64,000 nucleotides of DNA from an uncultured virus (IMG/VR IMGVR_UViG_3300023703_000810) (taxonomy: Duplodnaviria; Heunggongvirae; Uroviricota; Caudoviricetes), in the IMG/VR virus record IMGVR_UViG_3300023703_000810. One strand, written 5' to 3'. Shown in pieces: positions 25,536 through 64,000 of the stretch (its first letter is position 1; the number at the start of each line of letters is the position of its first letter). The notes under the pieces were generated by a model. That model saw only the letters and a list, made by a program, of their open reading frames with translations, did no database searches and was not told where the DNA came from. Both the position numbers and the translations under genes were made by a program.

Positions 25536-25871
25536 ATGGCGACAATCAGTAACCTTTTCGTGGACGCTGGAGCAAACTACAGTAATATCATCACTGTGGC
25601 TGCAACTAACGGACAGGCTCTAAATTTAACAGGATATACAGTGGCTTCTCAGATGAGAAAGTCATACACATCCTCAACTGCTTATAATTTCACAGCTTCT
25701 ATCTACGATGCTGTAAATGGCAAAGTACGCCTACAGCTTGACTCAACTCAATCGTCTACCATTCCAGCTGGACGATGGTTATATGACGTAGAAATCACTT
25801 CTCCTTCTGGTTTTAAAACTAGAGTCGTAGAAGGAATCGTGACAGTCTCTCAGCAAATTACACAGATTTAA
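25536..25871 (+). CDS. Small structural protein (BppU N-terminal-like)
   Basis: LNLTGYTVASQMRK..GRWLYDVEI..RVVEGIVTV. Confidence 0.7.
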   Translation: MATISNLFVDAGANYSNIITVAATNGQALNLTGYTVASQMRKSYTSSTAYNFTASIYDAVNGKVRLQLDSTQSSTIPAGRWLYDVEITSPSGFKTRVVEGIVTVSQQITQI

Positions 25872-59046: not shown

Positions 59047-59379
59047 ATGGCAACTATCGACGAAGTTAAAGCATCCCAGTTAGCTACAACTGGTGGTCGC
59101 AAATTTGATGGTGGTAAACTTCAATATGGTTTACTACCTCCACTCGCTTTGGCTGAGACTGTAAAGGTTCTCACGTTCGGAGCCGAGAAGTATGAACCAG
59201 ATAATTGGAAGCAAGTTCCAGATTCTAAGCGTCGTTATTTTGATGCGATGCAGCGTCATCTCTGGGCATACAAAAGTGGAGAACAGATGGATCCCGAATC
59301 AGGTATCCACCACTTAGCACACGCAATGTGTTGCTTGATGTTTTTGTACGAACACGATGTAAAATACTCAAAGGAATAA
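59047..59379 (+). CDS. dATP/dGTP diphosphohydrolase-like protein (DUF5664)
   Basis: KFDGGK..LLP..V..VLTFGAEKY..NW..RH..GE..DPESG.HHLAHA. Confidence 0.85.
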   Translation: MATIDEVKASQLATTGGRKFDGGKLQYGLLPPLALAETVKVLTFGAEKYEPDNWKQVPDSKRRYFDAMQRHLWAYKSGEQMDPESGIHHLAHAMCCLMFLYEHDVKYSKE

Positions 59380-60484: not shown

Positions 60485-60525
60485 TTGAAGAGGGAGTAAT
60501 CCCTCTTATTTGTTATGGAGTTGTG

Positions 60526-60816
60526 ATGAATAAACGTAAGAATCATATTGCTCGGGTCGACAGAAAAGTTTTACCTAAAGATGAGATCTACACTACTGAC
60601 TTGTGGGGTAATCGTCAGGTTAAAATGAAGTGGTGTAAGCATCATAAAAAGTATGAAGACCCGCGATTGTTTTTTGCTGAAAGTGCTTCTAAGAGCAGAC
60701 ACAAATACCAACTACGTAATATGTGTATTGAGGCTTGGGAATTGACTAATGGTAAGATAAATTTCAAACCAGATGACGATAACTCTGTGCCATTATTTTT
60801 GTTTATGAAAGATTGA
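60526..60816 (+). CDS. Hypothetical protein with Cys/His motif
   Basis: GGAG RBS; KWCKHHK..F..RNMCIE; inserted between gp45 and gp44. Confidence 0.55.
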   Translation: MNKRKNHIARVDRKVLPKDEIYTTDLWGNRQVKMKWCKHHKKYEDPRLFFAESASKSRHKYQLRNMCIEAWELTNGKINFKPDDDNSVPLFLFMKD

Positions 60817-61779: not shown

Positions 61780-62103
61780 ATGGAAGATTTTTTGTCTATC
61801 TTTGGCGTTTTCGCATTAGGCTTTATTCTGGGTTGGGTTCTCCGCGAGGAGTTAGCCAAGCGTCGAGTTGATTACATAATGAAACAACTCGACCAAGACC
61901 TTGGAGAAATCGAGGACGAGCTAATCAATATCAAGATCGAACAACATAGTGGTCAATACTATGTCTTCAATAAAGAGACCGATGAGTTTATGGCTCAGGC
62001 TCCAACTCGTAAAGAGTTAGAAGACTCTCTGGCATCTCGTTTTCCAGATACAAGATTCGCTGCTACTCCAGAGAATCTGAAGGAAGTTGGGTTTGCTAAA
62101 TGA
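61780..62103 (+). CDS. Hypothetical membrane-anchored protein
   Basis: N-terminal hydrophobic helix FLSIFGVFALGFILGWVL; GAGG RBS. Confidence 0.65.
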   Translation: MEDFLSIFGVFALGFILGWVLREELAKRRVDYIMKQLDQDLGEIEDELINIKIEQHSGQYYVFNKETDEFMAQAPTRKELEDSLASRFPDTRFAATPENLKEVGFAK

Positions 62104-62489
62104 GCCCATTCGACTATGTGAAAGCCATCAACGAAACCAAAGTTGATTTACTAGCAGGAGATCCAGAAGCAGTTAAAGACTATAACAAGGTGAAGTTTAT
62201 TGTGAACCGAGCCTTGGGATATTTCCCCGATACAGTTATGCAGGCAAACTCGATGAACCAACATCACCAATGCCCACCTGACTGGCAATTTTCTTTTTTC
62301 CTAAATACTATTTCGAAGAAGCGTCGTTTCAGTAAATGGGCAAAAGCCGACGCTGAGTCTGCTTCTTTAGAACTCGTAAAAGAGTACTATGGGTATTCAA
62401 GCGAAAAGGCGAAAGAGGCACTGAGTGTCCTTTCCGATGAACACTTGATTATGATAAAAGAAAAATTATACAAAGGTGGAAAATCATGA
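62100..62489 (+). CDS. gp62: Clamp loader small subunit gp62
   Basis: PFDYVKAIN; FIVNRAL..FPDT; KRRFSKW; VKEYYGYS.EKA. Confidence 0.92.
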   Translation: MSPFDYVKAINETKVDLLAGDPEAVKDYNKVKFIVNRALGYFPDTVMQANSMNQHHQCPPDWQFSFFLNTISKKRRFSKWAKADAESASLELVKEYYGYSSEKAKEALSVLSDEHLIMIKEKLYKGGKS

Positions 62490-62905
62490 CTGTTGAAGTG
62501 ATTTATTACGACTGGACTCCTGAGTCCATGCTCGAGGTGACGTTGCCTGAACCAGATGCATTTCTGAAGGTTCGTGAAACTCTAACCCGTATCGGGATTG
62601 CCTCAAGAAAAGAACAAAAGCTATACCAATCTTGCCATATCTTACATAAGCAAGGTCGGTACTTCATCGTGCACTTCAAGGAATTGTTTGCGCTCGATGG
62701 TAAAGAATCGAATATCACTGCAGGTGATATCGAGAGACGTAACGCAATTGCTAGTTTGTTACAGGACTGGGATCTGTTAAAGATCCTAAATACTACGCAA
62801 GCTGATCAAAAGGCTTCGCTATCTCAAATTAAGGTGGTCTCTTATAAAGAAAAAGACCAGTGGGAATTAGTACCCAAGTACAATATCGGTAAGAAAGCTA
62901 AGTGA
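62486..62905 (+). CDS. regA: Translational repressor RegA
   Basis: FLKVRETLTRIGIAS..LYQSCHILHKQGRYFIVHFKELFALDG; WELVPKYNIG. Confidence 0.97.
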   Translation: MTVEVIYYDWTPESMLEVTLPEPDAFLKVRETLTRIGIASRKEQKLYQSCHILHKQGRYFIVHFKELFALDGKESNITAGDIERRNAIASLLQDWDLLKILNTTQADQKASLSQIKVVSYKEKDQWELVPKYNIGKKAK

Positions 62906-63469
62906 TTAGTGCTTCGCCTTTATGTGTCTAGTTAAATTACCTAGATTCATAAAGATACCGCAATGGGGGCATGGAGATTTTTGACAATTCAGTTTAGCAA
63001 AAACGCCATGCTCTTTGTTTTTATGACTAATAGTTTGTTTTGATTCATTAGACATTTTAACTTTACGAGAAATTTTGGTTCTACCAAGAACCCATCCTTC
63101 TGGTATCGGTGAGTTGAATTTAACTCTTTTGTGATTTTTACCGTCATTTATCCAAACAGTTTCGGTATTAACACCAAGGACTCCTGCTCCACCTTTCGTG
63201 GTATTATAGCCAGAATTGATGGAATCAAATTCCTCTATAAAGAACTGCTCCATTGCATTAAGACAGTGCTCTTTATCGGTAGAAACATAAATCTCTTCCC
63301 ATAGAAAAGCACCCCAGCCATATTTTCGTATAGCTGTGTATAGTTTCTTTGGGGAATTTGGATAGAGTGCTTTATGACGAAGTACTCTTTGATGGAAGTT
63401 GGTTGCGAAACCAACATAAACTTTCTTTGTTATTTTGTTGGTAGCGGTATAGATTGAATAAATACTCAT
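62906..63469 (-). CDS. Free-standing GIY-YIG (Seg-like) homing endonuclease
   Basis: SIY..N...KVYVG, R, E, GYN.TKGG catalytic domain; WINDG..PEGW..GR; NUMOD3-like segment; CPHC..H..H; ATG at 63469 with AGGAG RBS. Confidence 0.88.
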   Translation of the reverse strand: MSIYSIYTATNKITKKVYVGFATNFHQRVLRHKALYPNSPKKLYTAIRKYGWGAFLWEEIYVSTDKEHCLNAMEQFFIEEFDSINSGYNTTKGGAGVLGVNTETVWINDGKNHKRVKFNSPIPEGWVLGRTKISRKVKMSNESKQTISHKNKEHGVFAKLNCQKSPCPHCGIFMNLGNLTRHIKAKH

Positions 63470-63529
63470 GCTGGTTCTCCTAAGTAGATCTAGAATGGGT
63501 AGAGACGGCAATCTCGTGACCCATACCAA

Positions 63530-63537
63530 TATTTATA
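63530..63537 (-). promoter_or_regulatory. Late promoter TATAAATA for the endonuclease
   Basis: Plus-strand TATTTATA, ~60 nt upstream of the endonuclease ATG. Confidence 0.75.
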
Positions 63538-63541
63538 ACAT

Positions 63542-63580
63542 TGGGAATTTCACTATAACATAGGAAAGAAAACAAAATGA
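63542..63580 (+). pseudogene. regA: Second, remnant copy of the regA 3' end (WEFHYNIGKKTK*)
   Basis: In-frame translation matches the regA terminus WELVPKYNIGKKAK*. Confidence 0.75.
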
Positions 63581-63756
63581 TTAAACTTGAATTGACTATT
63601 GCAGAAGTAAATACTATTCTTCGTACACTTGGTAAACACCCATTCGATGAGGTTGTAGCTTTGATCGGTAAGATTAAAGAACAGGGCGACCCACAAGCAC
63701 AAGCATTAGAAGCAGAAGCACAAGCTGCTGCAAAAGCTGCCCAAACAGCAGCGTAA
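63577..63756 (+). CDS. Small hypothetical protein (59 aa, not in ORF track)
   Basis: MIKLELTIAEVNTILRTLGKHPFDEVVALIGKIKEQG...; AGGA RBS. Confidence 0.75.
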   Translation: MIKLELTIAEVNTILRTLGKHPFDEVVALIGKIKEQGDPQAQALEAEAQAAAKAAQTAA

Positions 63757-63885
63757 AGAACCCACCTTAGGGCTGTTGTCGTCTACGGTATAGGCGTCCG
63801 AGAGATTTCACTGGCATTCGTTAATTGCCGCTGGATAAAGTAACCAGCACTGTCTTGCTTTCGAGGAGACAATTTTTATCACTTA

Positions 63886-63900
63886 CTCGCTTAATAGGAG
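63886..63900 (+). promoter_or_regulatory. ROSE-like RNA thermometer hairpin over the hsp20 RBS
   Basis: CUCGCU-UAAU-AGGAG with a bulged G; matches the ROSE U(U/C)GCU/AGGA signature. Confidence 0.65.
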
Positions 63901-63908
63901 AAACTCAA

Positions 63909-64000
63909 ATGACGAAATCATTCGTACCTGCATTCTTTAGCCAAGACCTTTTCAAAGACTTCGACAAAGTGTTTGTCGGTTTCGATGACCAATTCAAACG
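63909..64000 (+). CDS. Small heat-shock protein Hsp20/IbpA-like (5' part, truncated by window end)
   Basis: MTKSFVPAFFSQDLFKDFDKVFVGFDDQFK; the VGFD N-terminal motif and the position after regA fit T4-like hsp20. Confidence 0.7.
   Translation, partial: MTKSFVPAFFSQDLFKDFDKVFVGFDDQFK

Follow-up and report, generated by a model that had tools for sequence, protein, structure and literature searches.

The 64,000-nucleotide (nt) stretch of DNA analysed here in full (hereafter, the window) comes from the uncultured virus record IMGVR_UViG_3300023703_000810 and is part of the genome of a T4-like myovirus, a freshwater phage. Pfam matches in the window identify baseplate, neck, sheath, tube, portal, capsid, UvsY/UvsW, gp46/47-like, sliding-clamp and clamp-loader genes, all of them on the plus strand. 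Towards its end, the translational repressor gene regA is followed by a GIY-YIG homing endonuclease gene on the minus strand and by a short open reading frame (ORF) of 59 amino acids (aa), and the last codons of regA occur twice, once on either side of the endonuclease. The locus is composed of the following features, in which an asterisk marks a stop codon:

62486-62905, plus strand: regA, translational repressor gene (Pfam PF01818, E 1.6e-47, residues 15-135)
62486..62878, plus strand: regA codons 1-131, the backbone part, whose 60-nt segments are best matched by endonuclease-free relatives
62879..62905, plus strand: regA codons 132-139 and stop, TAC AAT ATC GGT AAG AAA GCT AAG TGA, read below as a replacement end borne by a cassette (near copy)
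62906-63469, minus strand: free-standing GIY-YIG homing endonuclease gene, 187 aa, start ATG at 63469
63475..63481, minus strand: Shine-Dalgarno-like AGGAGAA, 5 nt before the endonuclease ATG, read from the sequence
63495..63524, minus strand: conserved hairpin in the 5' leader of the endonuclease, ATGGGT...ACCCAT
63530..63537, minus strand: T4-type late-promoter-like TATAAATA for the endonuclease
63538..63553, no strand assigned: right end of the putative cassette, including TGGGAATT (63542-63549) and the terminal TTTCAC
63554..63580, plus strand: displaced native regA end, TAT AAC ATA GGA AAG AAA ACA AAA TGA (YNIGKKTK*), no longer translated as regA (far copy, or remnant)
63577-63756, plus strand: 59-aa ORF, with homologues after regA in 115 of 160 loci

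The 3' end of regA reads TGG GAA TTA GTA CCC AAG TAC AAT ATC GGT AAG AAA GCT AAG TGA and encodes the C-terminus ...KYNIGKKAK* (wider end, WELVPKYNIGKKAK*), and the endonuclease stop (TTA on the plus strand, 62906-62908) directly abuts the regA TGA (62903-62905). On the far side of the endonuclease, positions 63542-63580 read TGG GAA TTT CAC TAT AAC ATA GGA AAG AAA ACA AAA TGA. The first-pass annotation, made from the sequence alone, had quoted both of these stretches and described the gapless contact of the two stops, the silent differences between the copies and the overlap of the remnant with the next ORF; the letters proved correct at their coordinates, and each of these details was confirmed. 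The two 27-nt copies are identical at 20 of 27 positions. Of the seven mismatches, five are silent, each at the third base of its codon (Tyr, Asn, Ile, Gly and the last Lys), and the other two fall in the Ala/Thr codon. The frame of the remnant is closed upstream by an in-frame TAA (63536-63538), its TGA overlaps the ATG of the 59-aa ORF (ATGA, 63577-63580), and it holds AGGAAAG (63562-63568), 8 nt before that ATG; the ORF itself is without a Pfam or PHROG match. A flank-peptide test was applied to the flanks of 79 endonuclease loci, with 158 pairings of flanks from different loci as the null. The best ungapped 9-residue match across the window endonuclease is 8/9, against a null maximum of 6/9, so the likeness of the two flanks is more than chance; the alignment with relatives, described below, argues for this more strongly still.

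The 187-aa endonuclease matches Pfam PF01541 with 25.5 bits (cut-off, 22.6), the PHROG homing endonuclease families with E 2e-18 and the I-TevI catalytic domain 1MK0 with E 0.003. When aligned with I-TevI (1MK0/1LN0), its SIY, its VYVG, the Arg of HQRVLRH, the Glu of MEQ and the Asn of GYN fall on the catalytic residues, which we take to be numbered Tyr6, Tyr17, Arg27, Glu75 and Asn90. These Tyr, Tyr, Arg, Glu and Asn residues are invariant in four regA-site enzymes, and a C-terminal CxxC...HxxxxH motif forms a zinc-finger-like tail that is conserved in the family; the enzyme is apparently intact and looks active. The program-called frame begins at TTG (63529); the homologues all begin at the Met at 63469, which is invariant as their first residue, and the ATG at that position was therefore taken as the start. 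The gene is the only one on the minus strand among 57 non-overlapped ORFs of at least 90 aa in the 64 kb, its G+C content is 36.0-36.6% compared with 40.7% for the window, and in both respects it looks foreign. No intron or other RNA family matched in Rfam at E<=1 in 62300-64000, and the gene lies on the strand opposite to regA with its own start, ribosome-binding site and promoter-like site. The endonuclease is thus free-standing and not housed in an intron or intein, in agreement with the earlier proposal of an insertion without splicing. Among isolated phages, the best matches to the enzyme stay below 45% identity, with no T4 seg gene among the 25 matches listed, and the region has no close relative, the best reaching about 65-71% over parts.

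To compare the locus with its relatives, viral contigs were searched with the 59-aa ORF and RegA, giving 160 loci, 115 of which hold both genes; duplicate removal left 98 distinct regA-to-next-ORF junctions and 127 distinct endonuclease-free regA alleles. The analysis revealed a presence/absence polymorphism at one fixed site. In 48 of the 98 junctions regA runs uninterrupted into the next ORF with an ATGA overlap; 8 show other overlaps, 32 a spacer of 0-100 nt, 5 a longer insert without an endonuclease homologue, and 5 the endonuclease. Compared with the empty alleles, the window is longer by exactly 675 bases (62879-63553), which stand between the codons of Lys131 and Tyr132. The start region of the 59-aa ORF lies inside regA in the empty alleles, and the ORF is predicted to be translationally coupled to regA there. 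The far copy is identical at 27/27 positions to the native regA end of 12 of the 127 endonuclease-free alleles (e.g., L023, L037, L043 and L104), and the near copy is identical to none of them, the best reaching 22/27. Relatives lacking the endonuclease had been expected to end regA like the 63554-63580 copy and not like the 62879-62905 version, and this is the distribution that the alignment returned.

Since a repeat-flanked insertion can be drawn either way, the endonuclease might also have entered just after the regA stop, in which case the near copy would be native and the far copy would have been imported as a ribosome-binding site for the next ORF, whose AGGAAAG and ATG it does hold. We regard this course as very improbable, because the far copy agrees at 27/27 positions with native ends of endonuclease-free alleles and varies with the backbone, whereas the near copy has no counterpart in the empty alleles and changes along with the cassette. 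Moreover, at gene 32, described below, the displaced copy is followed by a terminator and no coupled gene, so the need for a ribosome-binding site cannot be the general reason for the arrangement.

Contigs of two metagenome runs weakly support the empty junction. In run X7 they read ...GTGGGAATTAGTTCCAAAA directly before 63554, and in run X8 regA runs into AACTTGAA... of the next ORF; the sides are short, and these junctions appear as loose ends of 18-28 letters only, with no formal joint across the cassette. Neither run covers 62948-63541, which is uninformative by itself. A contig of the RNA library X1 spans the whole stretch and is uninformative on transcription, strand or 5' ends; the window may itself derive from it.

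Endonuclease searches, run on viral contigs with the window enzyme and on metagenome contigs with a four-enzyme alignment, yielded six distinct endonuclease-bearing regA alleles in all. The window allele is represented by L001, L161, L171 and G001, and the enzymes of the other five are 91% (L033/L162), 79% (L163), 76% (L172/L173), 52% (L174) and 52% (L072) identical to that of the window. All six share the same construction: regA is broken between Lys131 and Tyr132, its stop touches or overlaps the endonuclease stop, and the remnant starts exactly at TATAAC, beyond the upstream region of the endonuclease. The Lys131-Tyr132 codons of the functional regA are AAG TAC in 6/6 of these alleles; among the 127 endonuclease-free alleles they are AAA TAT in 106 and AAG TAC in 4 (Fisher's test on the five viral-contig alleles, p 4e-7, which is not a true probability because the alleles are related).

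The question of which copy travels is answered most directly by L162. Its cassette is about 90% identical in DNA to that of the window (594/660, summed over 30-nt bins), and its near copy is identical at 25/27 positions and also encodes KKAK*; in codons 68-131, its regA is only 78% identical to that of the window and closest to L064 (91%) and L070 (90%). L070 ends natively in KKRND*, and removal of one A from this end gives the L162 remnant. A window-like KKAK* cassette therefore sits in a KKRND*-type backbone, which argues that endonuclease and re-spelled end move as one unit. In the same way, L173 has a remnant equal to the native end found in L103, the backbone closest to it (95%). The last 60 nt of the window regA are best matched by L162 (56/60 vs 52/60), and for all other 60-nt segments of regA and the next ORF the best match is an endonuclease-free locus. 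As far as sequence can settle it, the re-spelled near end is part of the cassette and the far end part of the backbone, and the functional regA of the window is best read as a hybrid gene. The earlier proposal that the element carries its own recoded regA C-terminus is supported, the near copy following the cassette and the far copy the backbone (L162; 27/27 vs 22/27). Taken together, we consider it likely that a 675-bp mobile cassette (62879-63553) was inserted in regA between Lys131 and Tyr132, bringing with it a replacement 3' end.

Several observations weigh against this reading. The first is L064, which has no endonuclease and holds both regA ends in tandem (...AAG TAC AAT ATC GGT AAG AAA CGT ACT GAC TAA, then directly TATAACATAGG...), with a 19-nt spacer before the next ORF; a simple insertion model does not predict such back-to-back ends. 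The second is that the carried ends of L163 (KKRSD*) and L173 (KKRSSD*) resemble the end type of their own backbones, a likeness that in-place duplication would also give. In addition, the AAG TAC spelling may merely hitch-hike with the cassette, no empty backbone came close to identity (at best about 85% in regA codons 68-131), and the cut site could lie away from the insertion point, as it does for T4 SegG. Finally, endonuclease and flank divergence are weakly positively correlated across 15 allele pairs (Spearman 0.52 and 0.60), so the history may have run largely by vertical descent or among close relatives. Incongruence between the endonuclease and backbone trees was considered and rejected, as the expected discordance was not seen across the 15 pairs; given the correlation, only the comparison of the window with L162 argues for transfer.

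The tandem ends of L064 would fit a history in which the last 27-30 nt of regA were duplicated first and the endonuclease later landed between the copies, the coding copy drifting silently and the element carrying nothing. The copies also share an end type in L163 (KKRSD/KKRND), L173 (KKRSSD/KKRND) and L174 (KKI../KKI..). We nevertheless find this history quite unlikely, since L162 combines a near copy of the window type with a far copy of the backbone type, and the near copies of the window and L162 agree at 25/27 positions while their regA bodies are 78% identical. The near copy of L064 itself has the endonuclease-associated AAG TAC AAT ATC GGT AAG AAA, in a backbone closest to L162 (91%), and for these two reasons L064 fits endonuclease loss better than a precursor. 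We read it as a probable scar of endonuclease loss that kept the resistant spelling, although it could instead be a precursor.

The positive correlation of divergences, in turn, would suit a resident nuclease, an old and immobile insertion kept for another role, such as excluding co-infecting relatives or regulation. The frame is intact in 5/6 alleles, the catalytic residues are conserved, and phage nucleases that interfere with competitors have been published (PMC11620839). This explanation remains unlikely in view of the distribution of the endonuclease, which is found in only 5/98 distinct junctions and is scattered among backbones. The cassette is also more similar than the flanks between the window and L162, and a frameshifted copy exists; competitor exclusion and homing are, besides, not mutually exclusive.

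The frameshifted state is found in L164, L165 and L175, which hold the L174 cassette minus one A in an A-run near codon 23, and this frameshifted L174-type cassette appears under contig names from three samples. In L066/L067, a 62-nt spacer ending ...ATCAC precedes a TATAAC-like remnant and may be another scar of endonuclease loss. One site thus displays empty, intact-cassette, frameshifted-cassette and, on our reading of L064, two-end scar states, an unusually complete life cycle of a homing endonuclease.

The mobile cassette carries signals of its own upstream of the endonuclease. When 8 cassettes from two target genes are folded to a consensus, the leader hairpin has 8 pairs, 3 of them with compensatory changes that keep the outer stem paired; the window leader alone, folded as a single sequence, does no better than shuffles (z -1.0). 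The late-promoter-like TATAAATA holds the only minus-strand ATAAATA in the 64 kb, with 12 on the plus strand, and its TAAATA core is kept in 8/8 of the same cassettes. On the plus strand, NATAAATA is found 30-48 nt before four ORFs (14133, 25536, 39819 and 44090), three of which have structural-gene Pfam matches, the ORF at 25536 having none. The TATAAATA octamer is not enriched in the window (4 found vs 3.5 expected), and a promoter/terminator scan of the window gave no excess over shuffles; the case for a late promoter is therefore built on the strand bias of ATAAATA and on conservation, not on enrichment. Late promoter and hairpin together resemble the control described for I-TevI and other T4 endonucleases (PMC2988022). 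A terminator-like hairpin was found inside regA (minus strand, 62859-62835), 47 nt past the endonuclease stop; as one of 2 terminator-like sites found vs 1.0 expected, it may be a chance occurrence.

The right end of the cassette is less uniform. The alleles with the endonuclease differ in the spacer that separates promoter and junction, and across the six of them TATAAC is preceded by TTTCAC, TTTCA, CTTCA, TTTTA or TTTCAG. The first-pass annotation had noted that TGGGAATT occurs in both copies. It is indeed present at both places (62861-62868 and 63542-63549); its status as a duplicated relic did not hold, since the other five endonuclease-bearing alleles do not preserve it, its place being taken by TAGGGAATT, CTGGAAATT, the unrelated TATATTTTCACAC (L172/L173), CTGCGTTTT and AGCGTTTTC. 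The far TGGGAATT as a relic of the regA Trp-Glu-Leu was accordingly rejected as unsupported; it is probably cassette sequence, and the securely duplicated unit starts at the Tyr132 codon and measures 27 nt (30 nt with the shared TGATTA). Just before the remnant, TATAACATTGGGAA (63534-63547) is identical at 12/14 positions to the first 14 nt of the remnant and reads Tyr-Asn-Ile-Gly. Here TATAACATTGGG (63534-63545) and TGGGAATT may be part of a third, decayed and older Tyr-Asn-Ile-Gly copy, or TATAACATTGGGAA may resemble the remnant by chance, in a place where it overlaps the promoter and a local palindrome, CCAAT...ATTGG.

The same arrangement, which the first-pass annotation had proposed to look for around related endonuclease genes, was met at gene 32, one of the other genes whose endonuclease homologues were picked out by the flank-peptide test. 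Two cases are known, L216:212-1102 and L222:1406-2135, both antisense and with enzymes 47-50% identical to that of the window; the neighbouring gene was identified through its G001 homologue, which matches Pfam gp32 with E 7e-45. The functional gene 32 closes with YFENLANED* or YFSRLAESD*, in contact with the endonuclease stop. Past the late promoter of the endonuclease comes the displaced end, FRNLAEED* or FSKLAEED*, followed by the same terminator hairpin as in endonuclease-free gp32 genes (L285/L286). As this remnant is without a coupled downstream gene, the duplication appears as a property of how the element inserts and not only as rescue of a ribosome-binding site. The endonuclease was absent from all 80 of the 80 gp32-end loci of viral contigs. 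In T4, segG presumably sits at gene 32 as well, the position taken here by a relative of the regA-site enzyme.

A third target is a gene of unknown function ending ..YY(R/S)NLW(D/T)*, represented by L166:2329-3775, L184:458-1141 and L190:297-973. It overlaps the 3' end of the endonuclease, a ..LWD* remnant adjoins a promoter-like TATTTA, and its flank-peptide score, 6/9, equals the null maximum. Recurrence at gene 32 and this third gene suggests a general strategy for which genomes could be screened. Three further loci differ in layout or context. In L204:1397-2106, a duplicated gene start (MDWLDVKY / MQWLDVKY) stands on either side of a 49% homologue, and in L203:1361-2137 (YNGMQSTMI / YAGSQSTMI) the layout is co-oriented and TATAAATA immediately precedes the endonuclease. 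A second contig of X1, 7.6 kb long, holds the cassette hairpin and promoter (63491-63535, 4 differences in 45 nt) in a different context, which points to another member of the endonuclease family at another site.

The insertion, the empty site and the linkage of one end to the cassette and of the other to the backbone can be read from the alleles themselves; for cutting, repair and protection, we infer the following course. Along the plus strand, the cassette would consist of the replacement for the last eight regA codons and stop, the antisense endonuclease, its leader and its late promoter. The carried end would complete the RegA protein without splicing, and the original 27-nt end would be pushed downstream, where it would still supply the ribosome-binding site and the ATGA start of the next ORF. 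During mixed infection, the enzyme would cut an endonuclease-free regA near the junction of Lys131 and Tyr132, and the break would be repaired from the endonuclease-bearing genome, with homology arms formed on the left by the body of regA and on the right by the displaced end together with the next ORF. The product would resist re-cutting in two ways, as the target is split in two and the carried end is re-spelled (AAG TAC vs AAA TAT); immunity of the allele through its carried end, already suggested by the first-pass annotation, may follow from the spelling.

More tentatively, and with rather less than even confidence, we hypothesize that the regA cassette belongs to a lineage of phage GIY-YIG 'home-and-rescue' drives that enter the last or first codons of core genes (regA, gene 32 and at least one more) of freshwater T4-like phages, always antisense, with their own late promoter and a resistant, re-spelled terminus. 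The remnant may then serve at once as homology arm, as start of the next gene and as an uncleavable operator for self-repression. The displaced native regA end lies 16 nt from the late promoter of the endonuclease, and I-TevI represses itself via an operator; the operator idea derives from these two points only.

Comparable elements are known from eukaryotes. For the WHO elements at FBA1 of Torulaspora and Lachancea yeasts, the model inferred above for regA was proposed together with cleavage data (Coughlan et al. 2020, PMC7282813); there the displaced fragment is termed an essential homology arm, and resistance comes from the carried 3' end. As in the regA cassette, the endonuclease gene adjoins a full-length target whose 3' end is replaced, the target is chimeric, and no splicing is involved. 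In WHO elements the 3' end is replaced at each homing, and allele-specific cleavage was shown (PMC7282813). The WHO proteins are intein-like LAGLIDADG/zinc-finger enzymes of the eukaryotic nucleus that replace about 400 bp, compared with a phage GIY-YIG enzyme and 27 nt at regA. Unlike WHO genes, the regA-site endonuclease is antisense, its stop touches the target stop, and the displaced end still provides the next gene with its start region. The hallmarks of 3'-end-replacing elements are nonetheless found at regA: an altered target end lies beside the endonuclease (22/27) and a displaced native end beyond it (27/27), and the target is chimeric in L162, where a KKRND-type backbone carries a KKAK* end.

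A second parallel, for which the model is again the same, is provided by the mobile endonuclease ORFs (mORFs) of fungal mitochondria, which form gene hybrids in atp6, atp9, cox2 and nad3 of Glomus and in atp6 of Allomyces macrogynus (Beaudet et al. 2013, PMC3630166). Here too a foreign C-terminus is followed by an endonuclease ORF (GIY-YIG in atp9) and by the native C-terminus downstream, and the native copy matches close relatives while the inserted copy does not (PMC3630166). The mORFs differ in their organellar location, in being usually co-oriented and often fused in frame, and in the length of the duplications, about 50-280 nt (PMC3630166); the regA cassette, by contrast, has an antisense endonuclease with its own phage late-promoter-like site.

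Among phage systems, the T4 Seg enzymes resemble the regA-site enzyme as free-standing, I-TevI-like endonucleases of a T4-like phage under late-promoter and hairpin control, and their intronless homing proceeds by double-strand-break repair with co-conversion of flanks (PMC2988022). The seg genes differ in lying between genes and in relying for immunity on polymorphism of the flanking genes (PMC2988022). The string 'duplicat' does not occur in the accessible part of this review of T4 mobile elements (PMC2988022). In the T5-like phages Shivani and phiR201, a GIY-YIG gene lies between the spanin genes (Kongari et al. 2018, PMC6139136). As at regA, a phage GIY-YIG gene of about 700 bp splits genes that overlap in relatives, and changes affect only the very last part of the upstream gene and the first part of the downstream one (PMC6139136). 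That case concerns other genes and another phage group; insertion versus deletion was left open there, and the accessible text describes no carried end or remnant. A literature search whose coverage excluded most subscription journals returned no phage paper describing a carried replacement gene end. As far as found, this kind of element is thus known from yeast nuclei and fungal mitochondria and has not been described for phages.

The regA element is distinguished by its antisense phage GIY-YIG gene, the replacement of nine codons, stop included, and a remnant that forms the start region of the next gene, and further by comparative evidence, from a single site, for all stages of the endonuclease life cycle and by recurrence at two or three genes. 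Under the cassette reading, a selfish endonuclease can occupy an important phage gene without an intron or intein by bringing a tiny replacement end, which would widen the insertion range of phage homing endonucleases, explain odd short 'pseudo-ends' beside such genes, and let gene ends evolve as chimeras. Engineered cleave-and-rescue gene drives carry a recoded rescue copy, and the layout at regA may be seen as their natural counterpart. For annotation, the functional regA would be the hybrid gene, and the 27-nt remnant should be kept out of any gene annotation.

A second, distant GIY-YIG gene is present in G001, a near-identical virus record of 166.5 kb, at C1:69643-70146 (L169:1339-1848); it encodes 169 aa, is 29% identical, and lies in a stretch without long ORFs that is tRNA-region-like by appearance, recalling what we take to be the situation of T4 segB. 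Elsewhere in the window, a 110-aa ORF (59047-59376) matches PF18909, the dATP/dGTP diphosphohydrolase N-terminal domain, with E 4.7e-36 and may point to modified-nucleotide metabolism. Two ORFs without a Pfam or PHROG match lie among the replication genes, one of 97 aa (60523-60816) between the sliding-clamp and gp44 genes and one of 107 aa (61780-62103) between the clamp-loader genes gp44 and gp62, and the 129-aa gp62-like ORF matches Phage_clamp_A.

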